32,000 nucleotides of DNA from Thermodesulfobacteriota bacterium (GCA_026625185.1 CP113000.1:3192651-3224650), one strand, 5' to 3'; counted from the stretch's first letter, positions 1,359 through 29,575 are shown. Notes: generated by a model not told the origin, from the letters alone. Made by a program: numbers and translations.

Positions 1359-1877
1359 TTAGGAATCTGACCTTAATTTATAGGTCAAGCGAATAAAGGT
1401 ATCTAAGCCATCTCCTCCTAACACCAAAAACACGTCCATCCCGCTGATATTGCGCCAAATAGAAGCATAATTTCCTTTTTTGAGTTTAAAACCTTTTAGC
1501 CGACTTTTACTGTTGTTGAATTTATCTTCCATAAATTCCAGCGCCTCCGGAAGACCATATTTGGCCACCAATTGATCCTTAAGATCGCGGTATTTGGCAA
1601 TGTGTTCAAAGGCGGAAGCGTCATCTTTTTCTACTTCAAAATATTGATAAATTGCCACTAACCAGTCGTCTTTAAAGATTAGGTTAATTTCTGCGGCTTG
1701 CGGTACATCAACCGGTGGGCTGATAAAATCTAAACGATCCGATCTTTCAAAAAGCGGTCGTAAGCCCTTCTTTTGATATACAATTTTCACCTCTGTTTTA
1801 GTCATTCCAAAACTGAGGGTAAGAAGTTCCGGAAAGGTTTCTTTGGAATAATTTGAGGTTATAAGCTCAGGCATCAA
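1359..1877 (-). CDS. Hypothetical protein (172 aa), no family recognised
   Basis: Clean ORF with balanced composition, convergent with queH/DUF2905. No motif recognised. Confidence 0.45.
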   Translation of the reverse strand: MMPELITSNYSKETFPELLTLSFGMTKTEVKIVYQKKGLRPLFERSDRLDFISPPVDVPQAAEINLIFKDDWLVAIYQYFEVEKDDASAFEHIAKYRDLKDQLVAKYGLPEALEFMEDKFNNSKSRLKGFKLKKGNYASIWRNISGMDVFLVLGGDGLDTFIRLTYKLRSDS

Positions 1878-5957: not shown

Positions 5958-6773
5958 ATGGCATTCGCAGCTCACCCAGAATTTACTCCGCCATCTGATG
6001 AAAACGCAATTATTTGGCGTTACATGGATTTGTCAAAATTTTTATCTGTGTTAGATAAATCTGCTCTCTTTTTTATCCGTTTAGATCGATTATCAGAAAT
6101 GGATCCGTTTGAGGGTTATTACACGAATGCAAATTTATTAACTGATCGCTTACGGTTTGAGGATTTACCCGAGGAATGGAAAACTAAAGGCGGGATTAAA
6201 GATGCTGAAACTTGGGAGATACTTCGGAGTTCACAACAACAAATGCGGCAGTTTGTGAAGATTAATCGCGCAGTCACCTTTGTTAACTCTTGGTATTGCC
6301 AACAACACGAATCAGCTGCCATGTGGAGCCAATATTTGCGATCGGGAGAAGGCATTGCAATCCAGTCATCATATCGCCGTTTAGTTGAATCCTTGCAAAA
6401 CTATACCGAATACAATGTTCAGATTGGATTGGTTAAGTACCTCAATTATGAACGACAGGCTATTCCAAGCGGGAATTTACTATCGCCATTTATATATAAA
6501 CGCAAGAGCTTTGAACATGAGCGAGAAATAAGAGCTCTAATTTGGACCCCAGAACACGGTAAGAATGATCTATCGGATCCATCGAAGAATAAATACCGTG
6601 ATGAACTGGGTATCTATGTTCCTATTGATCTTAATATTCTTGTAGAACGCGTTTACCTCTCACCAACATCACAACCCTGGTATCTTGAGTTGCTTTCATC
6701 CCTAATGAAAAAATATAATTTGGATGGTAAAGAAATAATCCTTTCAGATTTGGCAAAAACACCAATATACTAG
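5958..6773 (+). CDS. DUF2971-like protein (271 aa), cassette-type cargo
   Basis: The N-terminal segment IWRYMDLSKFLSVLDKSALFFIRLDRLSEMDPFEG matches the hallmark opening of DUF2971 proteins as I remember the family. AAGGGG lies 7 nt before the ATG. Low G+C (22/60 at 6061-6120). Confidence 0.6.
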   Translation: MAFAAHPEFTPPSDENAIIWRYMDLSKFLSVLDKSALFFIRLDRLSEMDPFEGYYTNANLLTDRLRFEDLPEEWKTKGGIKDAETWEILRSSQQQMRQFVKINRAVTFVNSWYCQQHESAAMWSQYLRSGEGIAIQSSYRRLVESLQNYTEYNVQIGLVKYLNYERQAIPSGNLLSPFIYKRKSFEHEREIRALIWTPEHGKNDLSDPSKNKYRDELGIYVPIDLNILVERVYLSPTSQPWYLELLSSLMKKYNLDGKEIILSDLAKTPIY

Positions 6774-10159: not shown

Positions 10160-10239
10160 GGTTTTTGCTCCGGCTCATAGGTCATAGCTTATAGCAATAA
10201 ATAACGAGTTACTGTCAGCCATCAACCATGAGCTATCAG

Positions 10240-10869
10240 CTATTTTTTCTGATTCCGGTATACTTCTTCAAAAATTTCCTCCGGTGAACTCAAATGGGGA
10301 TTGCGGTTTAAGGTTTCTTGGATCATTTTCAGGGCCTCGGCCCGCTTATGACCCAGTTGCTGCACCATCACTTCCAATACTTGGTGGGCATAATCTTCTT
10401 TCTCCTGGGGCAGGCACGGAGGCGCCTCTGATTCTATGATCAACGCAAACTTTGCCATCTTCCCATAGAGGTGCGCAATGATTTTATCCGCCAACTTTGG
10501 TCCCAGACCTTTTATCTGGACCAGAAAGCGGCTGTTGCGTTCTTCAATGGCTTGCGCAATCTGGTGAATTGGACAGATTATCAGCTTGATCGCTTTCGTG
10601 GGCCCTATGTCCGATACCGTAATGAGACGTTCAAAAAATTCCCGCTCGGCTTCGCGATTAAATCCGATCAGCATAGGCCGGGGTTGTCGTTCCGGATGAT
10701 AATAGGAAATATAGAGCCCCACCTCATCGCCATCGTCCCCGACTCTTTTGCCGTTAAAGGTCGCCCGGACAATGGGAGGTACCATTACGTCGTAGCCCAC
10801 GCCATTGGTCACAATGACCACCCTATCATCTTCAACTTTCCACAGTTTCCCGTGAAGATAACTTATCAT
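10240..10869 (-). CDS. ruvA: Holliday junction DNA helicase subunit RuvA
   Basis: 209 aa. N-terminus MISYLHGKL...VVIVTNGVGYDVMVP, HhH region (GIGPKLA-type: IKGLGPKLADKI) and the operon position between ruvC and ruvB. Confidence 0.9.
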   Translation of the reverse strand: MISYLHGKLWKVEDDRVVIVTNGVGYDVMVPPIVRATFNGKRVGDDGDEVGLYISYYHPERQPRPMLIGFNREAEREFFERLITVSDIGPTKAIKLIICPIHQIAQAIEERNSRFLVQIKGLGPKLADKIIAHLYGKMAKFALIIESEAPPCLPQEKEDYAHQVLEVMVQQLGHKRAEALKMIQETLNRNPHLSSPEEIFEEVYRNQKK

Positions 10870-10881
10870 CGTTTTTCGCCT

Positions 10882-11376
10882 TTACCAGTGAACCGCATGT
10901 GCCCGGGAAAGGCCTACCAAAGCCAGTGCTAGGGCATCGGAAGCGTGTTCGGAGGTGATTGTTTCCTTTATTCCCAAAATTTTTTGTACGGCTTTTGAAA
11001 CCTGGTTCTTATGTGCCCGTCCGTTTCCCGTAAGCGCCGCTTTTATTTCCGTCGGTTTAAGCTCCATCACCTCAAGGTTATTATAGGCCGCAGCCAGGGC
11101 TACGATTCCCCGTACCGCGCCTAACTGCAACGCTGCCTTAGGAAATCGAGGCAGCACGAATACATCTTCTAAAATTAAAAGTTGGACATCCCATTTTTGG
11201 AGGATTTTTTTTAAATCAAGAAAGATAGTCTGAAGTCTTTGAGGGGTGGAATCTTTTGGGTTGGTCGAAAGACAATCCCATGCTCGCACGACTCCTCTTT
11301 TATCAACAATTTCGATAACACCGTATCCTGTCTTGGCGAGCCCGGGATCAACGCCGATTGCTCTTAGGTTAGCCAC
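10882..11376 (-). CDS. ruvC: Crossover junction endodeoxyribonuclease RuvC
   Basis: 164 aa. [18 protein letters not shown]-terminal catalytic motif and a C-terminal [12 protein letters not shown] motif. Overlaps the yebC stop by 8 nt. Confidence 0.9.
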
Positions 11377-12118
11377 TCATCTTCTCCAGCAGGTCTTCTG
11401 CAATATCAAAATTGGCATACGTTTTTTGCACGTCATCCGAGTCTTCGAGCGCGTCCATAAGCTTAATCATTTGTTCTGCTTCTTTCCCTTCCAGTTTTAC
11501 AGTATTTTTGGGGACCATGGTGATTTCCGCCAAAAGATACTTAAAGTTTCGGCGTTCCAGCGAACCTCGGACGGCATCAAAATTTTTCGGATCAACGATT
11601 ACCTCAAAAGTAGTGGCCTCTTCTTTAACATCATCGGCTCCAGCCTCTAACGCCGCCTCGAAAAGTTTTTCCTCATCCACCTGGTCTTTTTCAAAAACAA
11701 TAAGGCCTTTTTTATCAAACAGCCAGGAAACACACCCGGACTCACCCAGGTTGCCGTTATGCTTTGAGAAAATATGTCGGATTTCTCCTGAGGTTCGGTT
11801 TTTATTATCCGTCAAAATATTTACCAAAACCGCGACTCCCGCCGGGCCATACCCTTCATAAACAATTTCTTCCAGGCTTCCGCCTTCGATTTCTCCCGTG
11901 CCTTTCTTAATTGCCCGTTCTATATTATCCTTAGGCATATTTTCCGCTTTGGCAGCGGCAATCGCGGTCCGAAGCCGGGAATTTCCCTCTAGGCTTCCTC
12001 CGCCAATGCGGGCGGCAATGGTTATTTCTTTAATCAGCCGCGAAAAAATTTTCCCTCTTTTGGCATCTAATGCCCCTTTTTTTCTCTTAATCGTGCTCCA
12101 CTTGGAATGCCCTGACAT
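11369..12118 (-). CDS. yebC: YebC/PmpR-family DNA-binding transcriptional regulator
   Basis: 249 aa. [37 protein letters not shown] is the canonical YebC N-terminus. Classical yebC-ruvCAB arrangement. Confidence 0.95.
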
Positions 12119-12281
12119 ACTTTTGTCCCCTGTAATAAAAAATAAGATTTTTTAATAAAAAAAAAGGCTCACCTTCGGATGCATTTTGCGGAAAAAATCA
12201 TAGTTCTAAAGAGTTAGCATTATTAATGTATACCATAGCTGCTTTTCATTGCAAACAAAATTTTAATAGCCGTTAAAGACA

Positions 12282-14728: not shown

Positions 14729-14866
14729 AACCATTACTGCTTTCCCCGTGCAATTTTTTTTGACAATTTTCTAAAAACCAACCTTTGATTTTTTTTGTTT
14801 TTTGGGATATATCTGTCCGGACTTGCCTTAAGGATGTTTAAAGGTTTCGATAAAGGAGGTTATAGC

Positions 14867-16474
14867 ATGTGGAGTTGTCGTACGATCCGAAATAGGTTTT
14901 TTTGCCACGGCATTTTTGGGAAGATAAAAATTTGCGCTATGGCCAGCCTTTGGTCATCCCTTCTTGTCCTGGCTCTATCCAATGCTGCTTTCGCGCAACC
15001 GAACTTTTCCTATGACCAGGTGGTAGCCAAAGCGCAGCAATTGGTGCAAAAGCCGTATGACCCTAAGGCCGGACTAGTTCCGGATTTTTTATTAAACATT
15101 AAATACGATGCCTGGCGGGATATCCGCTTTAAGCCGGCAAAGTCTTTATGGCAGAACGAACATCTGATGTACACAGCTCAATTCTTTCATCCCGGCCTGT
15201 ATTTTCCCCGGGCAATAACCATTAATGTGGTGGATGCTTCGGGTGTCAAACCAGTCCCCTTTTCCACTGATTTATTTGAGTATGAAAAGTCGGCTGCTCC
15301 GCTTAAGAAAAAAGTGCCGTCCCAGCTGGGCTTCGCGGGTTTTCGTCTCCATTACCCCCTCAACACCCCCACGTATTTTGATGAAGTCATCGTTTTTCTC
15401 GGGGCCAGTTATTTTCGGGCGGTGGCGCAAAACAGCAATTACGGTCTTTCGGCCCGGGGAATTTCGATTAACTCGGTTTCTCCGTTTCCCGAGGAATTTC
15501 CCCATTTCAAAGAATACTGGTTGGTCAGACCCCTGCCGGGTGCCAAACAGATCACCATCTACGCCCTGCTCGATGGTGAAAGCGTTACCGGCGCGTATCA
15601 GTTTATTGTTCAGCCGGGAAAAGAAACCCTGGTTGAGGTTAAAAGCACTATCTTTTTGCGGAAAAAGGTAGATCGGTTAGGAATCGCGCCCATGACCAGT
15701 ATGTTTTTTTACGGTGAAAACACCAACACGCGTCCGGTAAATGACTTTCGGCCGGAAATTCACGACTCCGACGGTTTGCAGATTGCTCTTGGTTCAGGCG
15801 AATGGCTCTGGCGGCCACTGAAAAATCCCGGCGTAATTACCAATAACTGGTTTTTCACCACCAACCCCGTTGGTTTCGGCCTCATTCAGCGGGACTGTGA
15901 TTTTGATCACTATCAGGACCTGGAAGCACGTTATGAGAAACGGCCCAGTTTGTGGGTCGCTCCTAAAGGCAAGTGGGGAGAAGGCTGGGTGGTGCTTCTG
16001 CAAATTCCTTCGCATCTTGAATTTGATGATAATATGAATGCCCTGTGGGTTCCGGCTCACCCCCCGGAGGCAAAGCAACCTTTGTCATTTGACTATACCA
16101 TGAGCTGGCATTACCCTGATAAAACGCGTCCACCTGCCGGCCAGGTTGTCGCCACTCGAACGGCAGATGGCAAAACCAAAAATGCCCAGAAATTCGTCGT
16201 TGATTTTGCCGGAGGCGAATTAGAATCAATTCCAACGGATAAACCGCCTACCGCTATTGTCTCCGTTGATCCCCGCGCCAAGTTGGTAGAACAACAACTG
16301 GAGAAAAATATCATTACGAACGGATGGCGGCTGGTATTTGAGATAAGCGTGGACAAGGAAGTGTTTTTGCAAAAAGTGCTTCAGGGATCTGATCCGGCGA
16401 TTGAACTTCGGGCGTTCCTCAAAGACGGTGAGAAAGTATTAACGGAGACTTGGGGTTACGCTCTTCAGCCATAA
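14867..16474 (+). CDS. Periplasmic glucan biosynthesis protein, OpgG/OpgD (MdoG/MdoD) family
   Basis: GFRLHYPLN, GASYFRAV, YGLSARGISIN, EEFPHFKEYWL, YALLDGESVTGAYQF and IHDSDGL are colinear with the MdoG family. I moved the start to the ATG at 14867 (AAGGAGG 7 nt upstream). The signal peptide ends in AAFA-Q. Confidence 0.9.
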   Translation: MWSCRTIRNRFFCHGIFGKIKICAMASLWSSLLVLALSNAAFAQPNFSYDQVVAKAQQLVQKPYDPKAGLVPDFLLNIKYDAWRDIRFKPAKSLWQNEHLMYTAQFFHPGLYFPRAITINVVDASGVKPVPFSTDLFEYEKSAAPLKKKVPSQLGFAGFRLHYPLNTPTYFDEVIVFLGASYFRAVAQNSNYGLSARGISINSVSPFPEEFPHFKEYWLVRPLPGAKQITIYALLDGESVTGAYQFIVQPGKETLVEVKSTIFLRKKVDRLGIAPMTSMFFYGENTNTRPVNDFRPEIHDSDGLQIALGSGEWLWRPLKNPGVITNNWFFTTNPVGFGLIQRDCDFDHYQDLEARYEKRPSLWVAPKGKWGEGWVVLLQIPSHLEFDDNMNALWVPAHPPEAKQPLSFDYTMSWHYPDKTRPPAGQVVATRTADGKTKNAQKFVVDFAGGELESIPTDKPPTAIVSVDPRAKLVEQQLEKNIITNGWRLVFEISVDKEVFLQKVLQGSDPAIELRAFLKDGEKVLTETWGYALQP

Positions 16475-16508: not shown

Positions 16509-16673
16509 AGAGACTGTGTCGTAAGTCATTTTTATGTCATTTCGAAACGAAGCGAGTGAGCATCAGTTCATTATCCCTCGCGAAGCGAGAAATCTTGGTT
16601 TCAATAAATTCAACACGTTAAGATTCCTTACATACGTTCTGAATGGCATTTCCCTAATTGCGACACAGTCTCT
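16509..16673. repeat. 165-bp element bounded by perfect 13-bp inverted repeats (MITE/REP-like)
   Basis: AGAGACTGTGTCG at 16509-16521 and its exact reverse complement CGACACAGTCTCT at 16661-16673. The interior holds CGAAGCGAG direct repeats and GTCATTTCGAA / GATTCCTTAC...GAATGGCATT motifs. It lies between convergent gene ends. Confidence 0.6.
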
Positions 16674-18523
16674 TAACGTAGCGGATACACCATCTTCGAA
16701 TAAGATGAGGCCTCAGGTCTGAAAAGATTTTTGCCCCAACGCAAAGTCACTTTAATCGGTATGTTTTTTACCGACAGATCGTAATCCTTACTCTCCAGCA
16801 TTATCTGACTTTTGGGAGGATACTTGATTCCATTAATCGTGACCGCATCCCCCGCCTCGATAGTATAAACCCCCGGAATAAGCACCTCAAACCGGGTGGC
16901 ATGTGCACTATCCTTGAACTCGAATTCCTTCCCGGCAACATAGAGGGATCCCCAGTGTTTGACATAATTTTGTTTTATAACCTCGGCATCCTCTTTCAAG
17001 GGCCTGTGTCCCGATTTGATTTTCTGACTATCCATGTTCTTCGGGTGGATACATGATCTGTTGCCTATCAGAAACACAGGATGGTGCTTTATGATCAACT
17101 CACGAAAAATTGGAGTGTTTCTTTTTATGTAGTCTTCCATCCCCCATGTGCTCATAAAAATTCCAACCTTCGGATAGGAGGATATCATGGAGAAGGCATC
17201 AATATAAGGTGTCGCCTCAGGAAATATCTGGTGTACCAGTTTTACCATCCTTCTTTGGGTTATCATTTCATCAGAATTGCGTTGCGCGTAAATTTTCATC
17301 ATTGAAAGAAAGACTGCTATTGAAAGAAAAAGTACTCCTATATTTTGCCATAAGAAGATAGATTTTGTTGCTTTGGTAAAAATTAGGATGTCATCAATAA
17401 GCATCCCGCAAAAAATGAATAAAGGAGGCATAATAAAAACATAATAGTATGGCCATGCGTTTCTATAGAAGATCACCGTCAAAAGCAGAAGAAGCACAGG
17501 GATTAACTGACAAAGCTTCAGGAACTTGTCGCTTTTTTTCAGTATTTTTTTAATCGCCGACATGAGACCACTAACCAGAGAAACCCAGATAATCAAATTG
17601 TCCATGACGGTTGCCTGAAAAACACTAAAACGCGGGAAAAACACATTTTCCAGAAACATTTTTGAAAATATATCACCCAGTCTGGGAAACGATATCGTTT
17701 TCAATGATCCTGCGGTATAGGAGGATCGAGACTGAGAAGCGGCATTATCCCTTGTTGTTTCTGCGGCAGATAACGAAAAAATATGATAACCGTAGAGCAA
17801 GGTAAGAGTTAATAATAATACCGCCCCAAAAACAGCAGCATGTTTGATTACTCCTTTTTTGGAGGAGGAAGACAGAACGTTGATAACATATATCAAAGCA
17901 ATGGGAAGTAGATATAGCAACGATTTTATCGTAACCATTATGGAACAGCCTGTCATTACCCCGGCGATGATGGCGCCTTTGTAGGAATGAGGCTTGCCCA
18001 AGATGAGATAAAGAGATGCCAGAAAAAGAAAGCTGCAAACCGGATCCATCCGGAAGCTGCTTCCATGAAGCATTATATTGGAAAAGGAGAAATAACAAAG
18101 TGCTGAGAATAAAGAACCCTCTTTGCTTAAATAGATGCCGCCGATTTTATAAACCAGGATGCCCGACCCCACACTAAGCAGACACATTAAACAGCGGGCA
18201 ACGATGATTTGATTGATCTCATTACAGAAGATTGATGGAAGCCATGAAAAGAAATGCACATGGAATGACTGCAGCGGATCTATATCCTCTCCGCGTAAAT
18301 AAGAATGCACAAGAGAAAGGTAATAAAACTCATCCCAATTGATATTTAAGCAGAAGATCAGATGGACTTTAAACAGGATTGCGACAACGATAAGCAACAA
18401 AATGCCATAACGGATAATTTTAGAATTTAAGCCTTGATCGCAATAAGTTATTATGGGGGTTAAAGATTCCCTACACATTTTCAACCTATCTTTATAAACT
18501 CTATCCCTTTCAACCTGAATCAC
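16673..18523 (-). CDS. Polytopic GT-C-type glycosyltransferase (family 39/83, ArnT/PMT-like) with a C-terminal soluble domain
   Basis: 616 aa with more than 10 hydrophobic helices. NINWDEFYYLS (DE motif) lies in the first extracytoplasmic loop, as in PMT_2/ArnT-type enzymes, and the last ~150 aa are soluble. The start is GTG at 18523 or ATG at 18478. Very low G+C (16/60 at 17341-17400). Confidence 0.6.
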   Translation of the reverse strand: MIQVERDRVYKDRLKMCRESLTPIITYCDQGLNSKIIRYGILLLIVVAILFKVHLIFCLNINWDEFYYLSLVHSYLRGEDIDPLQSFHVHFFSWLPSIFCNEINQIIVARCLMCLLSVGSGILVYKIGGIYLSKEGSLFSALCYFSFSNIMLHGSSFRMDPVCSFLFLASLYLILGKPHSYKGAIIAGVMTGCSIMVTIKSLLYLLPIALIYVINVLSSSSKKGVIKHAAVFGAVLLLTLTLLYGYHIFSLSAAETTRDNAASQSRSSYTAGSLKTISFPRLGDIFSKMFLENVFFPRFSVFQATVMDNLIIWVSLVSGLMSAIKKILKKSDKFLKLCQLIPVLLLLLTVIFYRNAWPYYYVFIMPPLFIFCGMLIDDILIFTKATKSIFLWQNIGVLFLSIAVFLSMMKIYAQRNSDEMITQRRMVKLVHQIFPEATPYIDAFSMISSYPKVGIFMSTWGMEDYIKRNTPIFRELIIKHHPVFLIGNRSCIHPKNMDSQKIKSGHRPLKEDAEVIKQNYVKHWGSLYVAGKEFEFKDSAHATRFEVLIPGVYTIEAGDAVTINGIKYPPKSQIMLESKDYDLSVKNIPIKVTLRWGKNLFRPEASSYSKMVYPLR

Positions 18524-18578
18524 AGCATCAAATTTGGCGATAGTGACGAAAATTTTTTTGGTTGAAACCGGGGTAAGG

Positions 18579-20351
18579 TCAATTAGCTTTTTTTTGATTC
18601 AATATTCGTTCCCTGTTTATTTTGTTAACAATCAATTTCACAATAGAATCATCCAAATCACCAGGGTTTAGTATCCGCGTTTTATCCCCGTCGAGCTTGA
18701 CCGAGATCTCCCTATTATTACAAAAAACACTAATAATATCCCTTTGATCTCCATGCCGATAAACGATATACTGGGCAGGAAGACGGGGGATGCAAAGTAA
18801 ATCCCCCGCCCATATGGAGGTACACTGTTCACCGGAAATAAGATTTTTTAAACTATTGCACAAGTCAACTTGTTGAAAGGGACGGTTTTCCACAACCCCA
18901 CCCTGGTCTCCATAAGAAATTATGAAAGGTATTCTTGCCAATGCCCTCGTTACTTCGGTTTGTTTCTTTTCTTCACGTTTCAAGGGGACCATTGCGTGAT
19001 GATCTCCCAGAATAATTAAAATCCCTTCTTTGAAGAATCCGATCTGCGATAGTTTTTTGTAAAACAGACCAAGTTGTTTATCTACATATCTAAAAGTTTC
19101 TGATTCTGAATATTTGTCATTTTCTGGATTTATATAAGGATTATGACTGCTTACTGTCTTTACAAATAGGATATAAGGTTTATCAGACTGATTTTTAACA
19201 ACTCTGTCAAAAACTCTATGGTATAAAGCTTCGTCCGGCGCGGCTTGAAAATGATATCGCTTCCAATTATTATAGTATTGGTATTCATGGCCTTCTATAT
19301 AATCAAAACCAATGCTTTTGGCCCAGTTTCCTGTGTCCGAAAAATTCAGATCAGCAGAAGTAATAAATTCAGTGGTATATCCATTCATTCGCCCTACCTG
19401 TGGAAGAGAATTGGGAACACCATAATAACCTCGAAAAAAATTGGATCCTTTGTTTCTTGTTTGTTTAAAAGGCCCATAGATAGGAAATTTACCTGTTAAT
19501 ATTGCTAACTCAGCGTCTTCAGTGATAAACCCATTTGAATAAAAATTTTTGAAACTTAAATTATTTTCGGCAATAGCATCCATGTTCGGAGTCCAATTGT
19601 TTATGCCTGAAAAAAAATTACTCTGGTATGAAGAAAGCGATTCCACCATCAAAATAATAATGTTCTTCCTTTGCGGTTTACGTTTAACACACGCCTCATT
19701 TTCTTTATACGATTTATTTGCCATAATGTTACGTTTGAATTTTTCGCTGTAAAAAGAATTCTGAGATTCTATTACCGAATTATATTCGGCAACATTTCTA
19801 TACATCCACGAAAGAGCATACCCCTTATCATCACGCAAACAAGACGAAACTGCCAGGATCGATAAAGTTAACAAAAATATACCGTGTGTTCTATGGGAAA
19901 GTGTATGTTTCTGAAAAAGAAAAAAAATTGTTAACCCCACGAACAATATAAGAATGAAGAGAATAAAATATAACGCTACACCTCCATAAACTATTTGTAT
20001 AAACGTCGGAACGTAAGAAATATATTTGAAGCAGTCAACAAGTGTTAAACGCGTGTTGAACGTTTCGAGAACAAGTATATCCAATACATAGATTACAAAT
20101 ATAATGATGGCGACTATACGTAGAAAAATATGAAGGAGCCTTGGTAGTTTTTTTATAAAGGAAATATAGAAAAGAAGCAGCATAACAAAATATATAAGGG
20201 AATCATGGACAAGTACCTGAATCCCCCCATACAATCTTTTGAACACATGGTCGAAGACACGGCCTTCTACATAAAGCGATCTGACTAAGAGCGGATAGAT
20301 AAACACTATCAGACAAATATACTTTACTGTTCTCAAACTAACAATTTTCAT
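18579..20351 (-). CDS. Membrane-anchored sulfatase-fold transferase (LtaS / phosphoglycerol transferase OpgB-MdoB family)
   Basis: 590 aa. Five or so N-terminal TM helices are followed by NIIILMVESLSSYQS, VSSHNPY and ILGDHH, the alkaline-phosphatase-superfamily motifs of LtaS/MdoB-type enzymes. GGGGA RBS. Low G+C (20/60 at 19981-20040). Confidence 0.75.
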   Translation of the reverse strand: MKIVSLRTVKYICLIVFIYPLLVRSLYVEGRVFDHVFKRLYGGIQVLVHDSLIYFVMLLLFYISFIKKLPRLLHIFLRIVAIIIFVIYVLDILVLETFNTRLTLVDCFKYISYVPTFIQIVYGGVALYFILFILILFVGLTIFFLFQKHTLSHRTHGIFLLTLSILAVSSCLRDDKGYALSWMYRNVAEYNSVIESQNSFYSEKFKRNIMANKSYKENEACVKRKPQRKNIIILMVESLSSYQSNFFSGINNWTPNMDAIAENNLSFKNFYSNGFITEDAELAILTGKFPIYGPFKQTRNKGSNFFRGYYGVPNSLPQVGRMNGYTTEFITSADLNFSDTGNWAKSIGFDYIEGHEYQYYNNWKRYHFQAAPDEALYHRVFDRVVKNQSDKPYILFVKTVSSHNPYINPENDKYSESETFRYVDKQLGLFYKKLSQIGFFKEGILIILGDHHAMVPLKREEKKQTEVTRALARIPFIISYGDQGGVVENRPFQQVDLCNSLKNLISGEQCTSIWAGDLLCIPRLPAQYIVYRHGDQRDIISVFCNNREISVKLDGDKTRILNPGDLDDSIVKLIVNKINRERILNQKKAN

Positions 20352-22868: not shown

Positions 22869-25800
22869 TTATATCACTTGGTTATAAGTGCCTTGCTCAT
22901 ACGTTTTTCCTCGATACACTACCCGCTTCAGCCGCAAGGAACCTTTGGGTGCAAAAGCGTTTTCCGCTAATATCAGATTCCCGTACTCCATCTTTAAGCC
23001 CAGCATGATATAGGCAGTATAAAGCATGCGGCCGGCAGCACCGGTGTACCAGCTCCAGCCACCGCGGCCCTCATAGCCCGGGCCAAAGTAGATATCCGCT
23101 GCCTGCTGGTGGGGAGAAAGACCATAGGAACTGTTATTCATGTGCGTAAGGGGTGAGATTTTAAGCCACACCTCAACCGCTTTTATCCGGTACTTGTTCG
23201 CCCGGTTACCATCGTTTTTTCCCTCAGCAAGATCAGCAAGACGCAGCAAGGCGTCCACCATCCATGATGAGCCGTGGGAGTACTGGCCGCCGTTTTCCCG
23301 CACTCCCGGGGGGTAGTCAGCGATCCTTCCCGGGTACGGATCCGAATCGTCGTTAAAAGGCGGGGAACAGAGCAAAATCAAGTTGTCCTTTTCCAGCTCC
23401 TCCAAGCCGGTTGCCATTGCCGTTGCCCCTTTTTCAAAATCCGCCGCATTAGAAATAATTGGCCATGAGGCAGTAAGAGCATCGGCCACATCAAGCTCCC
23501 GGCCATCATCAGTGATCGCGCGTATATAGTGATTACCACGCCACATCCGGTCAAGGGCCTGTTTCAGACCTTGAGCCTTTTTAAAAAAATATTGCTTGGT
23601 AAATTTACCTTTTTTTACTTTCACCAATTCGGCAAACCGGCAAAGAACCTCATAAAGAAAAAACCCAAGCCAGACGCTTTCACCTTTACCGCGGGGGCCC
23701 ACTTGATTTAGCCCGTCATTCCAGTCGCCCGTGCCGATAAGCGGAAGCCCGTGAGCCCCTTGTTTGCGGAGGGAAAATTGAATCGCTTTCAGGCAATGCT
23801 CGTAGAGGGAAGCAAACCCCCGTGAACTGCGCTGGGCGAAAAGAATTTCATTAGCGCCTTTCGGAATCGGGCGTGGCTCAAGAAACGGCACCTTTTCATC
23901 AAGGATGCCGTGGTCGCCCGTTGCCTGCACATAATGGGAGACCAAGTAGGGCAGCCAGAGGTGGTGATCAGAGGCGCGGCCCCGAAGCCCAAGCCCGGTT
24001 TTCCCTTCCCAGGACTGATGCCACCATTGTAAGACATCTCCCTCAGCAAACTGCTGGCTCGCATGGAGCAGTATCTGGCTGCGGCAGATTTCCGGATCAA
24101 GAAAAACAAGAGGCAGAACGTCCTGAAGCTGGTCACGGAACCCATAGGCGCCGCTCCGCTGGCATAGCCCGGTTCTTCCCCACAAGTGGGAAACATAAAC
24201 CTGGTAGGGCAGCCAGTCGTTTACCATACGGTCAAAGGCCGGCTCATTGGTCTCGATTCTCATCGTGGAAAGCTTGTCCGACCACCAGCGTTTGGTCTTT
24301 TCCCAAGCCTCCTGTGCTGCCGGAACCTCGCGCAGGGTTCTGATGATTGTGCCGGCAGTCTCAAAATCATCGGCCTGGCCGGCCACGATAGCGATGGTTT
24401 CTTCCCCGCCGGGCGGGATGGTTATGGTGGAGGCAAAACCGGCGATGCGGTAACCGCCATCGGACTGACATGAATCAGGAGTCCCGTGTTCCACCATGTA
24501 TGGCCAAGAAATTCTCCGGTCCGGTCCGCCAATAAATCTTTTTCTGAGGGTCTCAACAGCTTCCACCGGAATGCTGGTGGCGATAAAGGCCCACCCTTTG
24601 TGAAAATCATTGTTCGGGTTCGTGAAAAAGAATGCTTGTCGAGCATCGTCGAAACGGGCGATTATTTTCCCTTCGGTATCAAATGCCTCCTCGCCAAGCA
24701 TCATCTGAAAATAGGGCACGACCCGGTACGAAATCATCTCGTTCCCCCGGTTGCGGATCGTCAGCAGACGGACCTCAGCCGGTTGGTCAGGAAGCACCGC
24801 AAGGGTATATTCCATATCCACACTTTCCCGTACTTTTTTGTAGATTACATAGCCCTTGCCAAAAGTTATCCGATATAGAGCATCTTTCTGCCGTAAAGGA
24901 GCATAGGTGGGTGTTTCCGCCTTCCCCGTGGCCTGGTTAAACAAGTAGAGCACCTGGCTTGGCGTCTGCACCAAGGTCGAGCCGAAATTAAACGGCGTAA
25001 GACCGTTTTGCTGGGCGTTTCCCATGAAGGAATAAATGTCGCCGTCATTGGCCGCGATCGCTCCATAACCTTTTTCATTAGCCATGATGTGAGCCCACGG
25101 CCGGGGAGTTTTCCATCCCATATAAAGCTCGGTTCCTTCTTCGGAAAAAGAAAACACTCCACTGTCAGGAGAAACTGCTTTGTCCTGGTGGGGTTGGCGT
25201 AGGGCATCATGGTTCCCCGACGATTCATGGTTCAGCAACCGCCGCATCTTGGCAAACGAGGCCTCGAATGTGTGCCCGTTCGGGTTGGGAATTCCCAGAT
25301 AACGCGTAATCAACTGAGCAGCCTGATGCTCATCTTCGGCGTACCCGTCCACAAACTCCACCTTTGTGCCCCCGTGAGGCGGAAGCTTGATGAGAAGCCG
25401 CAGACAGGCAGCAGGAGAAAAGCTGTAGAGCAAACCTTCGTCTTCTGGGTCTCGCAGGTTCTTACGCAATCCTTCGGGCATACGGAGGGTCGCCTGCCCG
25501 AGGAAGTAAGGTCGGAAGTCTTCATAGCCGATCAGGGTTACGGTCCCGTCGGCATTTTCTTTGACCGCGTGGAAGGCCGTCTCCCGCGACCGTTTTCTCC
25601 TCAAGGAATCGCGGGGTATGTCTTTAAGCAAGTTATTGCGGGCAAAAATGGCATTCAGGGGCCGCACAAACCAGGTAGCCACATGAAGGTTGTTAAAAAT
25701 CGGATGCCGCCAGAATGCGCCGTGAACGTTCATGACCAGCTCGCGGTAGCTGGTGAGTTCAATCGTCCGGGGTTTGTTTTCAAGATTCTGCAAACGCACC

Positions 25801-28658
25801 CGCCAGATCTCCATTGTGTCCTGTCCGGCAACCGAAAGCACAGCTTCAGAATGAATGCGGTTATAGGTATGGGAAACTTTGACCGCATCTGGGCTCAGCC
25901 GAGTGACTGCGTAATCAAGGCCGGCCCGCTGCACCGGGTTATAGGACAGTGACCAGATGCTGCCCAAATTTTCTTCCGGCAGATCTTTGTCTTTCAGATA
26001 GAAAAATTTTCCGCACAACCACTGCGGATCAGCAGGCGGACGAGTCAAGTCAAGCTCTTCACCCTTGCGCACGGAGCTGAACACCCGGCTGTATCCCCGG
26101 CCGCCGGCCTTTAATTCAACGGTGTAAACGCCATTGGTAAGCACATGCGTTTTTTCTTCAAATAGGGCCGGTGGACAGACCGAAGATTCTGATTCCTTCC
26201 CCCGGTATTGCGGGGAGTTGCCTCGAGAGCTGCAGCGCTCGTTTCGGACCAGCATAAAAAGCCCGATTGTCAACGCGCCAAGAATGCATGCCCCAATCAG
26301 AAAAGCTCCGGGAGGCAAAAAAGTCTGGCCTTGGATTTTACTCGCAGCCTCATACCGGCTCCAGACCATATCCCACTCATTACCCCGGGGCATAAAAAAA
26401 GGAATTAACAGCGGTGCCCAGGTCGCAAATCGCCTCACCCCTTCCGGCATCCAGCGCGTGCGGGCAGAGTAGCCTAGAGCGCGGGCAGCTTTTTCATCAA
26501 CCAGGTCGCCGCCCACAAATGACAAGTTAACTAAGGTTGCCACCCTCAACCCCATGTGATCAAACCAGATAAGAACCCGGAACCAATCATAGACCAGAAG
26601 ATTCGTGAACACGTGCAGGCTCCACGAGCGAAATGAATCCGAACCCAGCGCAAACGTTTTCACAGTTGCCAGGGTGCTGCGAATCGCGCCGTCCTGGTTA
26701 TACCACGTTGGGTCCGGGGACATTTTCAGAAAAGAATTAATAATGGGCGCCATCCATAAGCCCCACCGCAACACGCGGACGGTCTGTTCAACAACACCGG
26801 TAAAACCGGCCAGGCTCATCAGTTCCCGCAATGGCGCGGTGCTGCGGCGTAAAAGCGCGGTAAGCAAAACCAGGTTAATGCTAAAAAGCGGCGCGGCAAA
26901 CGCCCAGTTGACCACGCCGGCAACTGCCTCAGAATACAAAAGCCGGACGCCCCCCCCCACCGTGCCGAGATTCACGGCGCCCCATTTGTTAAAAAGGGGG
27001 TAGGTAACGTAGTCCTTTACTTCGATTCCTGAGGCCGGATAAAAGAGAGCGGCATACCGTTGCAGCTTGTCGGCAACCACCCTGGTCTGAGGCCCGTCAA
27101 AATACCAGGCGAGAATGCCGCCGATCGTGCCTCCCAGAAAAATGCCAAGAGCGTATACTTTCCATGTCTGCAATTTTTTCCGCGTGCCTTTTGCGCTTTC
27201 AATCATGTCGCGGAACAGATCAACTCCGCCATAGGCAACCGCGCCGATGGCAAAGCCCCAGGTGAATCGATCAAGGCTTTCGGCAATAAGCAACCCGCTG
27301 CGCAATGCGTAGCAAAGTACGCCTCCAACGACCGCTCCCCGCAAGCAATGGGTGACTGCCTGGTAATTAGTGGCAAACCTTCCGAAAATGGGCGTACTCA
27401 CGTCAAAACTTTCAATGATGGTTTTTAAAAGCGGAAACAGGAGAGCTCCAATCACCAGAGAGGTTATCAAGGGATTGTGAGTGAAAAATAACTGAACCTG
27501 CTGATTCTTAAACAACAGGACACTACTGTGGACAAGCGCCATGAAAATCCCGCTATACACGGCTCCCTTCAGGCACCCGTTCCGGAAATGTTCCGTTCCC
27601 CAGTACCACGTCGGCTTCTTGCCATGCATGACGTCCAGAAGAATGCCGGTCAAAAGATACACCTGCCCCCACAGCCCGGCCTGAGAAGCCATGGTAGCCC
27701 CAAGCACCAAAGCCATTTTCAAGATAAAAGGCAGAGACGCTGCGCCGGCAAGACAACCCCCGTTGGCGATGGCCGGAGTAAGACCGCACCATAAAGCACT
27801 GGTAATTAATAAAGCATGCACACGGCCGTCCCGCACCAGACATCCGGCGATAAGTATGTTCACCAGGCCGGCAACTCCCTCGTTAAATATCAATAAAACA
27901 ATCACCCGCCCCACCGCTTGAAAAAACTCCGGTGAAGCCTTCAGACCGAACATCAGGACGGAGCCGGTTTGTTGAAGCAGCACCGGGGACTGTAAAAGAA
28001 GCAGCCAGTTAAAAAGAACCGGGGCAACAAGCACCCCAGCGACATGAAGGGGTTTTTCGCGGTTTCCGGTGGTAGCGAGAGAAAAAATAATCAGCCCGAA
28101 ATAGATAACAATGACCAGCGCAGCGGCAAAATCGGTGAACCTAAAAATCTCACTCCACGAAGCCGGCGCTTGCCATATCCGCAAAGTAACCCGCACTGAT
28201 AAGACCAGAACTCCGATGACGAGAAAGTCCTGGGTCGCTTCCCGGAAACTGAGAAACCGCGCGGTAAAGGAATAGGTAAGAATCGCCGTGGCAAGCACGC
28301 CGAACAGAGCAGCAATAAGCGCCTTTTCCGAGGTGCCTTCCCGGCAGGCAATCAGGACCGTGCCTGCCATGAAGACTATCGCCCCAAAGGAGAGTAGCGC
28401 TGAAAGCAGCAGTTTTTTTAGAAATCCGGCATTTCGTTTTTGAGATATAATCATTTCCAACAGCAAGCGGGGTCTTGTCGTCACCAAACGCAGCCACGGG
28501 GCGCCGCCGATTAAAGTTGTTTGCAAACCGGACTTAAGCAAACCCCGGGTAACATTCACTAAGAAAAGTTTGCAGCCTTCTCCCAGGACATTCCGTTCCG
28601 GGGAGTAGGGTCGCATTTTTGATAATGATTTTGTTTCATAACCGATAAAATTTGTCAA
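22869..28658 (-). CDS. Giant fusion protein: ~800-aa polytopic membrane domain (unassigned) + GH94 glycoside-phosphorylase-type domain (cellobiose / beta-1,2-oligoglucan phosphorylase, Cgs C-terminal type)
   Basis: 1929 codons uninterrupted. Residues ~75-805 are almost entirely hydrophobic helices. Residues ~835-1929 carry YGFRDQLQD (1505-1513), IGTGDWNDGLN (1641-1651; DWND is encoded at 23715-23726) and ENGGQYSHGSSW (1788-1799). The TTG start at 28658 is uncertain; the next ATG is at 28616. Confidence 0.85.
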   Translation of the reverse strand: MTNFIGYETKSLSKMRPYSPERNVLGEGCKLFLVNVTRGLLKSGLQTTLIGGAPWLRLVTTRPRLLLEMIISQKRNAGFLKKLLLSALLSFGAIVFMAGTVLIACREGTSEKALIAALFGVLATAILTYSFTARFLSFREATQDFLVIGVLVLSVRVTLRIWQAPASWSEIFRFTDFAAALVIVIYFGLIIFSLATTGNREKPLHVAGVLVAPVLFNWLLLLQSPVLLQQTGSVLMFGLKASPEFFQAVGRVIVLLIFNEGVAGLVNILIAGCLVRDGRVHALLITSALWCGLTPAIANGGCLAGAASLPFILKMALVLGATMASQAGLWGQVYLLTGILLDVMHGKKPTWYWGTEHFRNGCLKGAVYSGIFMALVHSSVLLFKNQQVQLFFTHNPLITSLVIGALLFPLLKTIIESFDVSTPIFGRFATNYQAVTHCLRGAVVGGVLCYALRSGLLIAESLDRFTWGFAIGAVAYGGVDLFRDMIESAKGTRKKLQTWKVYALGIFLGGTIGGILAWYFDGPQTRVVADKLQRYAALFYPASGIEVKDYVTYPLFNKWGAVNLGTVGGGVRLLYSEAVAGVVNWAFAAPLFSINLVLLTALLRRSTAPLRELMSLAGFTGVVEQTVRVLRWGLWMAPIINSFLKMSPDPTWYNQDGAIRSTLATVKTFALGSDSFRSWSLHVFTNLLVYDWFRVLIWFDHMGLRVATLVNLSFVGGDLVDEKAARALGYSARTRWMPEGVRRFATWAPLLIPFFMPRGNEWDMVWSRYEAASKIQGQTFLPPGAFLIGACILGALTIGLFMLVRNERCSSRGNSPQYRGKESESSVCPPALFEEKTHVLTNGVYTVELKAGGRGYSRVFSSVRKGEELDLTRPPADPQWLCGKFFYLKDKDLPEENLGSIWSLSYNPVQRAGLDYAVTRLSPDAVKVSHTYNRIHSEAVLSVAGQDTMEIWRVRLQNLENKPRTIELTSYRELVMNVHGAFWRHPIFNNLHVATWFVRPLNAIFARNNLLKDIPRDSLRRKRSRETAFHAVKENADGTVTLIGYEDFRPYFLGQATLRMPEGLRKNLRDPEDEGLLYSFSPAACLRLLIKLPPHGGTKVEFVDGYAEDEHQAAQLITRYLGIPNPNGHTFEASFAKMRRLLNHESSGNHDALRQPHQDKAVSPDSGVFSFSEEGTELYMGWKTPRPWAHIMANEKGYGAIAANDGDIYSFMGNAQQNGLTPFNFGSTLVQTPSQVLYLFNQATGKAETPTYAPLRQKDALYRITFGKGYVIYKKVRESVDMEYTLAVLPDQPAEVRLLTIRNRGNEMISYRVVPYFQMMLGEEAFDTEGKIIARFDDARQAFFFTNPNNDFHKGWAFIATSIPVEAVETLRKRFIGGPDRRISWPYMVEHGTPDSCQSDGGYRIAGFASTITIPPGGEETIAIVAGQADDFETAGTIIRTLREVPAAQEAWEKTKRWWSDKLSTMRIETNEPAFDRMVNDWLPYQVYVSHLWGRTGLCQRSGAYGFRDQLQDVLPLVFLDPEICRSQILLHASQQFAEGDVLQWWHQSWEGKTGLGLRGRASDHHLWLPYLVSHYVQATGDHGILDEKVPFLEPRPIPKGANEILFAQRSSRGFASLYEHCLKAIQFSLRKQGAHGLPLIGTGDWNDGLNQVGPRGKGESVWLGFFLYEVLCRFAELVKVKKGKFTKQYFFKKAQGLKQALDRMWRGNHYIRAITDDGRELDVADALTASWPIISNAADFEKGATAMATGLEELEKDNLILLCSPPFNDDSDPYPGRIADYPPGVRENGGQYSHGSSWMVDALLRLADLAEGKNDGNRANKYRIKAVEVWLKISPLTHMNNSSYGLSPHQQAADIYFGPGYEGRGGWSWYTGAAGRMLYTAYIMLGLKMEYGNLILAENAFAPKGSLRLKRVVYRGKTYEQGTYNQVI

Positions 28659-28665
28659 TGAGATT

Positions 28666-29100
28666 TTAAGATTCTGGAAAAAGCCGGCTATATTCTTTAA
28701 ACATGCAGTGGTCCTGAATAAATATGATACCGTTTTTTTCAGCCAGCATTTTGGCCTCTTCGTTTTGAATCCCTTCCTGCAGCCAAATGACCCCTATATC
28801 GCCTTTCTCCTTTTTTCTTTGGATAGCTTCCTGGACGATGCTGAGCGCTTCTTCGGAAGGACGAAACACCTCAATGATGTCAATGCGCTCCTCTACTTCT
28901 TTTAAATTGTGATAGCATCGTCGGTTGAGGATCATATCCGCGCTGGGATTAACGGGGATGATGGCATATCCTTTGGCAAGGAGAAAGGCGGGAACTCGAT
29001 GCGCAGCCTTTTTAGGATTTTTCGACATTCCATAGACCGCAATGGTGTGGCAGTTTTCAAAAATCTCAGGAATACGATCATTGTTTTCCATACAAGTCAC
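28666..29100 (-). CDS. CoA-binding domain protein (YccU/YneT-like)
   Basis: 144 aa. IAVYGMSKNPKKAAHRVPAFLLAKGYAIIPVNP is the CoA_binding_2-type Rossmann motif. Its stop lies 5 nt upstream of the first candidate start codon (TTG at 28658) of the giant ORF. Confidence 0.8.
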   Translation of the reverse strand: MTCMENNDRIPEIFENCHTIAVYGMSKNPKKAAHRVPAFLLAKGYAIIPVNPSADMILNRRCYHNLKEVEERIDIIEVFRPSEEALSIVQEAIQRKKEKGDIGVIWLQEGIQNEEAKMLAEKNGIIFIQDHCMFKEYSRLFPES

Positions 29101-29362: not shown

Positions 29363-29575
29363 TTAAGCCAAGATCGTTACTTTCTCAGCCTGGGGGCCTT
29401 TTTTACCCTCGGTAACCGTAAGCTCCACTCGTTGGCCTTCTTCCAAGTTACGGAAGCCACCGCCTTCAATGGCGCTATAGTGCACGAAAACATCGGGTCC
29501 TTGCTCTCTCTGGATAAAACCAAATCCTTTGGAGCCATTAAACCACTTCACTGTGCCAGTTTCTCGCTCTGCCAT
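29363..29575 (-). CDS. cspA: Cold-shock protein, CspA family
   Basis: 70 aa. [15 protein letters not shown] (RNP1) and DVFVHYS (RNP2). Confidence 0.95.

Follow-up and report, generated by a model that had tools for sequence, protein, structure and literature searches.

The genome of a Thermodesulfobacteriota bacterium (GCA_026625185.1) contains, within a stretch of 32,000 nucleotides (CP113000.1:3192651-3224650, the whole of which was analysed and is referred to here as the window), a large gene that is the subject of this report. It is a single, unbroken open reading frame (ORF) of 1929 codons at 22869..28658 on the minus strand, as is evident from the ORF list and the translation of the window, in agreement with a first-pass annotation made from the sequence alone, which had described it as an uninterrupted fusion of a large polytopic membrane domain to a glycoside hydrolase family 94 (GH94) phosphorylase. 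Residue numbers throughout refer to this 1929-codon ORF, and all features of the large gene given below lie on the minus strand. Sequence comparison and structure prediction indicate that the gene most likely represents a family of inner-membrane proteins in which a membrane domain of ~745 residues with a new fold is joined, through a short basic linker, to a cytoplasmic GH94 module of the type found in the synthase of cyclic beta-1,2-glucan (Cgs).

The true start of the protein is probably the ATG at 28454 (M69), because homologues of 1855 aa, such as P0177 (90% identical), as well as the family alignment begin near this residue. This start would give a coding sequence of 1861 aa at 22872..28454, followed by the stop codon at 22869-22871. 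The in-frame upstream extension with a TTG start (aa 1-68, 28455..28658) is covered by no homologue and is probably an untranslated leader or intergenic DNA. A sequence look-up found no record of the exact window protein with the M69 start.

Domain architecture of the large protein

The C-terminal ~1,090 aa form a complete GH94 phosphorylase with intact catalytic motifs, as seen in the Pfam matches, the alignment to Cgs, and the family alignment. The last transmembrane (TM) helix is followed by an R/K-rich basic linker (aa 814-836, 26151..26219), which corresponds to a region of low pLDDT at model residues 748-767, and then by an N-terminal, GP1-like beta-sandwich (aa 837-1120, 25299..26150) that aligns to residues 1529-1802 of Agrobacterium tumefaciens Cgs. 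Pfam matches the GH94 supersandwich (PF06165, GH94_b-supersand) in two stretches, the best of which is aa 1185-1427 (24378..25106; E 3.6e-71), and the (alpha/alpha)6 catalytic domain (PF17167, Glyco_hydro_94) at aa 1458-1880 (23019..24287; E 8.1e-75). With 240 bits against a cut-off of 23 and 252.5 bits against a cut-off of 27, respectively, both domains exceed the curated thresholds, and this, together with the presence of the catalytic Asp and of the Arg/His motifs, places the protein in GH94.

The relationship to Cgs is the closest one found for this half. In a phmmer alignment (E 6e-127), query residues 825-1120 match Cgs 1529-1802 and residues 1177-1894 match Cgs 2044-2755; these two stretches correspond to GP1 and GP2-GP3 of the Cgs phosphorylase module (domain names from PMC10901819), with the 166-residue Rossmann-like insert absent, so that GP1 and GP2 are separated by ~57 residues in the window protein versus 166 in Cgs. 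A profile built from 46 family members scores 754 bits against Cgs, ~272 against cellobiose phosphorylases, 222-230 against chitobiose phosphorylases, and 22 against the SOGP structure 5H3Z. The last match, to LpSOGP, has an E-value of 1.4e-4 and spans 130 residues only, and with so marginal a similarity and a polytopic architecture the window protein does not belong to the SOGP clade. The same 46 sequences, which come from several phyla and are 34-90% identical to the window protein, underlie all the conservation counts given here, and among them the catalytic motifs are invariant at their key positions. Thus, R and D are invariant in YGFRDQLQD (aa 1505-1513, 24120..24146), as are R-E-N, Y, H-G, and W in ENGGQYSHGSSW (aa 1788-1799, 23262..23297), including the full R-E-N...Y.HG pattern; we take the Arg and His motifs to serve in phosphate binding, as assigned from cellobiose phosphorylase structures. 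DWND (aa 1645-1648, 23715..23726), which lies within GTGDWNDGLN (aa 1642-1651), is likewise invariant, and its D1648 aligns with D2528 of Cgs (8rf9/8rf0), the catalytic acid of that enzyme (PMC10901819). The positions that the first-pass annotation had given for YGFRDQLQD, GTGDWNDGLN, ENGGQYSHGSSW, and the two membrane-domain segments CLKGAV and CLRGAV were all correct, and the case that it had named as refuting, GH94 catalytic residues that are not conserved, does not apply. We therefore regard this half as most likely a cytoplasmic phosphorylase of the Cgs type, intact as far as its motifs can tell.

The other half of the protein, the membrane domain (aa 69-813, 26220..28454), is ~745 aa long and is predicted to contain ~16 TM helices with a cytoplasmic N-terminus. 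The hydropathy scan and the AlphaFold model both yield ~16 TM helices and, in addition, at aa ~604-784, a less hydrophobic segment that is helical throughout, and hydropathy, loop charge, and the helix list agree with ~16 crossings and an N-terminus inside the cell, as does the extra N-terminal helix of the long forms described below. The GH94 half is assigned to the cytoplasm because the R/K-rich linker follows the last helix. The AlphaFold2 model of aa 69-850, which was calculated from an 80-sequence alignment and has a mean pLDDT of 87.2 and a pTM of 0.86, consists of helices and one beta-hairpin without a Rossmann-like sheet. These results agree with the first-pass reading of at least 16 helices and no room for a glycosyltransferase (GT) catalytic domain of the GT-A or GT-B type.

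No described relative of this domain was found in any of the resources searched. Pfam returned nothing at E<=1 for aa 1-830 except DUF3806 at E 0.21, which we judge to be meaningless; NCBIfam gave no match to any part of the window protein; and a profile search of the Protein Data Bank (PDB) found nothing for profile positions 1-750. Neither a GT84, GT2, or cyclase domain nor a GT-A or GT-B fold was detected in the membrane domain by Pfam, phmmer, profile search, or inspection of the AlphaFold2 model. When aa 1-820 were compared with the N-terminal domain, the GT84 domain, the TM helices, and the cyclase domain of Cgs, either as a single sequence or as a family profile, no alignment was obtained, and the N-terminal profile reaches Cgs solely through its trailing GP1 columns; the profile search thus confirms that aa 1-830 hold no GT84 or GT2 domain and are not the ordinary Cgs N-terminus. 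A Foldseek search of 350,542 PDB chains recovered no similar fold (best E 7e-3, TM-score 0.10-0.12), and with a second model, that of a long-form member, the membrane core was again unmatched in the PDB. The top matches, membrane pyrophosphatases, superimpose with TM-scores of 0.10-0.12 and a root-mean-square deviation of ~31 Å, and we take them as noise among all-helical proteins. Neither Pfam, NCBIfam, PDB profiles, nor Foldseek thus places the domain in a described transporter, channel, or GT-C family.

Conservation is concentrated in the final third of this membrane part (aa 581-762, 26373..26918), which holds 46 of the 67 invariant membrane-domain columns. At 25% invariant positions, this segment is better conserved than the GH94 domain, in which 83 columns over ~1,050 residues (~8%) are invariant. 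In the window protein it carries RWGLWMxPI (aa 631), PTWYNQDG (aa 650), DHMGLRVATLVNLSF (aa 700), and RFxTWAPLLIPF (aa 743), which family-wide take the form of four invariant motifs, RWGLWMxPI, (P)TWYNQDG, DHMGLRVxxxVNxxF, and FxTWxPLxxP. Further upstream, the conserved KTIIESFD(G)S (aa 412-419, 27402..27425) closes a TM helix and leads to a K/R-rich loop, PFFxRLxxxYR, which is probably cytoplasmic by its loop charge counts. Among the residues that the membrane domain keeps invariant, W, Y, F, N, Q, D, R, and H are frequent, a pattern that suggests contact with a sugar substrate, or catalysis, rather than a passive anchor. The segments CLKGAV (aa 362) and CLRGAV (aa 438), in which the first-pass annotation had seen a hint of internal duplication, find no support as such: hhalign comparisons of slices of the alignment, both global and local, gave probabilities of at most 1.9%, that value being the best of any profile-profile comparison.

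In agreement with the first-pass annotation, the protein thus fits neither the soluble GH94 phosphorylases nor the canonical Cgs. With Cgs it shares a homologous C-terminal region of ~1,090 aa (GP1-GP3) that keeps the catalytic Asp, a predicted location in the inner membrane with GH94 in the cytoplasm, and a tie to periplasmic beta-1,2-glucan. However, it lacks the Cgs N-terminal domain, the GT84 domain, the cyclase domain, and the Rossmann-like insert, and an unrelated domain of ~16 helices stands in their place; the membrane part of Cgs is a compact domain of six helices that forms no export channel (PMC10901819). As there is no GT84 domain, the window protein has nothing that corresponds to the polymerising activity of Cgs, and no match was found to the Cgs cyclase/transglycosylase domain (GH189, related to GH144), whether as Cgs ~1000-1500 or as SGL-clan structures. 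The soluble members of GH94 (LpSOGP/LiSOGP and the cellobiose and chitobiose phosphorylases) have the same fold and catalytic motifs, and the SOGPs also share the layout of N-terminal sandwich, supersandwich, and (alpha/alpha)6 barrel; unlike the window protein, they are soluble catabolic enzymes of the cytoplasm that rely on separate ATP-binding cassette (ABC) transporters.

Spread of the family and its genomic neighbours

The architecture is widespread. A scan with a degenerate pattern, in which each species was represented by one genome, found a relative in 333 species genomes; the carriers include Desulfobacterales and other Thermodesulfobacteriota, Omnitrophota, Planctomycetota, Elusimicrobia, Methylocystis and other Alphaproteobacteria, Gammaproteobacteria, Burkholderiales, Anaeromyxobacter, and bins labelled Actinomycetota. 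The genome closest to the window is an uncultured deltaproteobacterial metagenome-assembled genome (MAG), with 87% identity. An exhaustive hidden Markov model (HMM) search of 1.84 billion representatives retrieved 836 clusters at E<=1e-3, and among the best 150 of these 836 matches each full-length one has the same architecture and none other was seen. Of the 80 loci fetched, on which all the counts of fusions and neighbours below are based, nearly all the untruncated ones have a single ORF of 1783-2563 aa that covers both the membrane domain and GH94, the exceptions being L001 and L044. The fused ORF also occurs in complete genomes and on plasmids of cultured strains: in Paludisphaera borealis PX4, Aquisphaera giovannonii, and Planctomyces sp. 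SH-PL62 the gene lies on plasmids and is annotated as 'hypothetical protein', and the copy of Lichenihabitans psoromatis is annotated as 'GH36-type glycosyl hydrolase domain-containing protein' or 'glycosyl transferase family 36'. One current annotation name for relatives is incorrect, since they have neither the polymerase nor the cyclase domain. The fusion is thus real, and not an assembly artefact, a possibility that the first-pass annotation had itself raised.

Broken copies, which are split into two or three ORFs or end after the membrane domain, were observed at L001:10641-15534, P0004/P0013, P0007, and L044, the last of which has one ORF without a GH94 match. Since several of them come from long-read MAGs, they are probably the result of indel errors or frameshifts, or pseudogenes, and not stand-alone membrane-domain genes. 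At the other extreme are long forms, exemplified by P0008, in which aa 30-176 contribute a signal anchor, a beta-sandwich, and one extra TM helix ahead of the core. Pfam found nothing significant in the N-terminal extensions of these proteins. Foldseek identifies the sandwich as CBM11-like (E 5e-5, with a TM-score of 0.57-0.61 with respect to the target), other carbohydrate-binding modules (CBMs) ranking next, and the sandwich is taken to lie in the periplasm; CBM11 is a beta-glucan-binding module. ORFs of 2000-2560 aa were also seen in L046-L050, L054, L062, and L071, and some Omnitrophota and Elusimicrobia ORFs have an additional 400-600 aa upstream without a Pfam match.

When all neighbouring ORFs were clustered, the only neighbour kept across phyla was MdoG/GH186 (OpgG/D), which is present at 29 of the 80 loci. 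In Anaeromyxobacter and most Desulfobacterales the GH186 gene lies immediately upstream of the large gene and on its strand, an order that resembles opgG-opgH; in Gammaproteobacteria and Burkholderiales, where the strand is again shared, and in some Thermodesulfobacteriota it follows the large gene directly. Planctomycetes instead have as the neighbour a conserved secreted protein of ~700 aa without a Pfam match, whose only PDB relative is EeSGL1 (8XUJ; profile E 3e-6), a Group-1 beta-1,2-glucanase of the SGL clan and a demonstrated hydrolase (PMC12102758). The ~700-aa protein keeps the general acid (E343, corresponding to E221 in EeSGL1) and the aspartate of DNxNL, and it probably represents a new SGL-clan subgroup; its gene lies directly downstream of the large gene at L086:17418-19532 (Paludisphaera borealis plasmid PALBO1) and at L084:16261-18351, and ~1.5 kb from it at L074:~10238-12235. 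This pairing has a parallel in Cgs, which joins an SGL-clan domain to GH94. Together with the CBM11-like domain of the long forms, the GH186 and SGL-clan neighbours provide three independent links between the outer face of the membrane domain and periplasmic glucan, two of which point specifically to beta-1,2-linked glucan, and a connection to periplasmic beta-1,2-glucan, in line with the periplasmic glucan role proposed in the first-pass annotation, is well supported at the level of the family. Other recurrent genes, namely those for an AMP-binding enzyme, acetate kinase, HlyD, an AFG1 ATPase, and a major facilitator superfamily (MFS) protein, were rejected as partners, their recurrence being lineage-specific synteny only. 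At L083 and L085 the large gene has no glucan-related neighbour.

One locus, L081:392-15472 of the uncultured Desulfobacterium sp. TRIP AH-1 (LT984854.1), forms an island of osmoregulated periplasmic glucan (OPG) genes, with opgH, a gene of 136 aa, and opgG on one strand, the large gene with another paralogue of opgG on the other, and a sigma-54 response regulator between the modules of the two strands; the two glucan modules of this island may be differently regulated.

In the window itself, the plus-strand gene at 14795..16474 encodes a periplasmic GH186 (MdoG-family) protein (Pfam MdoG E 1e-181), which the first-pass annotation had labelled OpgD. With 428 bits to Escherichia coli OpgG versus 314-340 to OpgD structures, it is OpgG-like, and a neighbour-joining tree puts it together with the L081 and L022 copies, which are OpgH-linked (195 of 200 bootstraps), and apart from the GH186 copies that are adjacent to the large gene elsewhere. 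It is therefore probably not a dedicated partner of the large gene, and the source organism may have OpgH elsewhere in its genome; no opgH follows it in the window, where a PMT_2 gene on the opposite strand holds that place. This PMT_2-family (GT-C type) membrane protein (16673-18523, minus strand; Pfam) is accompanied by a membrane protein of the sulfatase/LtaS/OpgB superfamily (18579-20351, minus strand; Pfam). The description of the latter as OpgB-like stands at the superfamily level only, since it scores ~40 bits against phosphoglycerol transferase I of NCBIfam, for which the cut-off is 572. The two proteins may decorate the envelope or the glucan. As conserved partners of the large gene they were rejected: the sulfatase-family gene recurs at 1 of the 80 loci and PMT_2 at none, and both are absent from the closest relative, L087 (90% identity).

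L087 carries, in order, SOD, CSD, CoA_binding_2, a 501-aa gene, the large gene, BipA, and restriction-modification genes, without the OpgG/PMT_2/sulfatase block of the window. After BipA it has, at L087:13480-19473, genes for N6_N4 methylases, an EcoRV-like endonuclease, and an ORC/CDC6-like ATPase in the place of the window's sulfatase/PMT_2/OpgG genes, and this segment looks like a variable region. The block was also not seen nearby in Lichenihabitans, on the 7.8-Mb contig of L084, which has the SGL-like gene, or on the 1.78-Mb MAG contig of L085. In the window, the G+C content is 0.33-0.39 over most of the sulfatase/PMT_2 genes (16673-20351) and the intergenic DNA at 29-30 kb, and 0.52-0.55 in the large gene; the absence of the low-GC pair from L087 suggests a recent insertion.

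Upstream of the large gene, a CoA_binding_2 gene (28666..29100, minus strand; Pfam) lies ~211 nt from the probable start. The suggestion that the two are co-transcribed is not supported, as the adjacency is confined to close relatives, and a functional partnership was rejected on the same grounds, with the gene present at 2 of the 80 loci and separated from the large gene by another in L087. That intervening gene (L087:3149-4654, 501 aa) has neither a Pfam match nor a counterpart in the window. Beyond the CoA-binding gene lies a cold-shock (CSD) gene (29363-29575, minus strand), and L001, L087, L088, L018, L017, and L083 also have a CSD gene that shares the strand of the large gene and lies upstream of it. 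BipA, another stress-linked gene, is directly downstream of the large gene in both the window and L087. Two further window ORFs, at 5958-6773 (plus strand, 271 aa) and 1359-1877 (minus strand, 172 aa), have no Pfam match.

Proposed glucan coupling, its direction, and alternative readings

We consider it quite probable that the protein couples periplasmic beta-1,2-glucan to the cytoplasmic GH94 site by way of the membrane domain. In the mechanism that we envisage, one beta-1,2-glucan chain would be threaded through the membrane domain, which would serve as a channel or conduit, with the non-reducing end of the chain in the GH94 site, and each cytoplasmic step between glucose-1-phosphate (Glc-1-P) and inorganic phosphate (Pi) would be tied to translocation of that chain. 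In the periplasm, the glucan would be handled by a GH186 (OpgG/D-type) or SGL-clan enzyme and, in the long forms, also by the CBM11-like domain. Because GH94 works at the non-reducing end of its substrate, the reducing end would lead in export, as in BcsA, and the non-reducing end would lead in import. The proposed mechanism resembles that of BcsA-BcsB, in which a catalytic domain extends the non-reducing end and the chain crosses the membrane domain of the same polypeptide, and the analogy may extend to the periplasmic carbohydrate-binding beta-sandwich, provided by BcsB in the one case and by the CBM11-like domain of the long forms in the other. In contrast to BcsA, however, the window protein has no GT-A domain and no similarity in sequence or fold, and its donor would be Glc-1-P.

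As to the physiological direction, we lean, tentatively and at somewhat less than even confidence, towards synthesis and export. The protein would then play the role of an OpgH-like supplier without a nucleotide sugar, and export would probably need to draw on the proton-motive force, by way of the numerous charged residues that are invariant in the membrane domain. Spelled out in full, this would be a new class of synthase-exporter, in which a phosphorylase polymerises beta-1,2-glucan from Glc-1-P and the 16-helix domain extrudes it to GH186 or SGL-clan enzymes for release or cyclisation; we regard so specific a reading as possible, although it has more chances against it than for it. Several observations favour export. 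The two-gene modules of GH186 and the large gene resemble opgG-opgH, most of them without another glucan source within 10 kb; outer-membrane uptake genes, beta-glucosidase, sugar kinase, and other catabolic genes were not found to recur near the large gene in the clustering of neighbours; and the GH94 half is nearer to Cgs than to SOGP. The lifestyles of the hosts are not those of sugar-polymer feeders, as neither Methylocystis nor sulfate reducers are known as such. Finally, GH186 includes transglycosylases that require linear periplasmic beta-1,2-glucan as their substrate (PMC11842490). The likeness to the E. coli opgGH system extends to the composition of the module, a periplasmic GH186 protein with a large polytopic one, often in the same order, and to beta-1,2-glucan as the presumed product or substrate. 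The membrane proteins themselves differ: OpgH is a GT2 enzyme that uses UDP-glucose, and the window protein has a phosphorylase and no GT2 domain and, unlike the true OpgH of L081, matches nothing in NCBIfam.

A number of points weigh against this preference for synthesis and export. Phosphorylases are normally degradative in cells, where Pi greatly exceeds Glc-1-P, so that net synthesis would need an extra driving force, which we estimate from textbook values at ~3-8 kJ/mol per residue, and no source of a primer for synthesis is evident. The beta-1,2 specificity of the GH94 half is suggested by its closeness to Cgs and by its neighbours, that is, by similarity and context. The gene also stands alone in many lineages. 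The argument of the first-pass annotation from the lack of OpgH is not general, because OpgH lies near the gene in a few loci: in L081/L015 it lies ~7 kb away and scores 907 bits to the MdoH equivalog NF003958, in L022 it is within 8 kb, and in L052 it is directly upstream, in the order opgH, large gene, GH186. With a genuine OpgH at these three places, the large protein cannot simply replace OpgH, and the two are not simply interchangeable.

A rival reading has the reverse direction of the same threading, in which a periplasmic beta-1,2-glucan would be taken up non-reducing end first and degraded processively by GH94 to Glc-1-P, with phosphorolysis as the ratchet; the substrate could be the cell's own OPG, a cyclic glucan, or fragments released by the GH186 or SGL-clan partner. 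We rate this as a serious but, like the full synthase-exporter scheme, rather less than even possibility. Phosphorolysis is thermodynamically favoured in cells, and the presence of OpgH in the same island or operon in L081, L022, and L052 would make for a sensible pairing of synthesis with turnover or length control. The periplasmic CBM-like domain could capture the substrate, and Isosphaeraceae do degrade polysaccharides. The arrangement would also follow the logic of beta-1,2-glucan utilisation clusters with SGL and SOGP genes, namely an endo-glucanase outside, a transporter, and a GH94 phosphorylase inside. SGL and SOGP gene clusters are mentioned in PMC12102758, although that logic is not spelled out there, and hydrolysis has been demonstrated for EeSGL1 (PMC12102758) and is reported for E. 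coli OpgD (PMC10514313). Against uptake, genes for outer-membrane import, beta-glucosidase, and sugar kinase do not recur nearby, and the GH94 half is far nearer to the biosynthetic module of Cgs than to catabolic SOGP. Methylocystis and many Desulfobacterales are not known to live on sugars, and the fusion of a channel to an enzyme is typical of processive synthases and not of oligosaccharide importers.

It is also conceivable, but in our view unlikely, that the membrane domain is no conduit at all. It could be (a) a new membrane-embedded glycosyltransferase or transglycosylase that builds or modifies the glucan itself, with GH94 merely trimming chain length as in Cgs, or (b) a protein part that senses, regulates, or anchors, such as an osmosensor by which the phosphorylase is held at the membrane beside OpgH and controlled there. 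The level of conservation of aa 581-762 is that of a catalytic site, and the co-occurrence of OpgH at three loci agrees with such a reading; moreover, the GH94 module of Cgs merely controls chain length and is nearly dispensable (PMC10901819), and a fold without precedent should not be assumed to be a channel. However, the domain does not resemble GT-C, GT2, SEDS, Wzy, or any other membrane enzyme of solved structure, and a periplasmic polymerase that uses a lipid-linked donor would not explain the obligatory fusion to a cytoplasmic phosphorylase. A plain anchor, in turn, would not retain 67 invariant residues across phyla, and the gene is frequent without OpgH nearby. That the protein is an ordinary one, a canonical or truncated Cgs, or two genes mis-assembled, can be dismissed as very nearly impossible, being refuted by the lack of any GT84, GT2, or cyclase match in Pfam, phmmer, and profile searches and by a one-ORF fusion conserved in nearly all the untruncated loci, complete genomes and plasmids of cultured strains included.

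Meaning for beta-1,2-glucan biology

What is new here is the membrane half, which has no described relative, and its combination with GH94; the GH94 half itself belongs to a known family. In the open-access literature, we found no description of a polytopic domain joined to GH94 in a protein that lacks GT84. Periplasmic and cyclic beta-1,2-glucans matter in osmoadaptation, virulence, and symbiosis, and to our knowledge just two biosynthetic machines are known for them, OpgH and Cgs, both of which use UDP-glucose. If the coupling proposed here is correct, the family would comprise either a phosphorylase-driven exporter or a phosphorolysis-driven importer, the latter a kind of group translocation of a polymer, and either would be without precedent. 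In the former case, it would give Desulfobacterota, Planctomycetota, Omnitrophota, Methylocystis, and others a cheaper route to periplasmic glucan that is independent of OpgH and Cgs. Cultured hosts in which experiments could be carried out include Paludisphaera borealis PX4, Aquisphaera giovannonii, and Lichenihabitans psoromatis. At the minimum, the family represents a new membrane-protein fold that merits a Pfam entry and allows current annotations to be corrected, and it would extend the biology of beta-1,2-glucans into phyla in which this has been unstudied.

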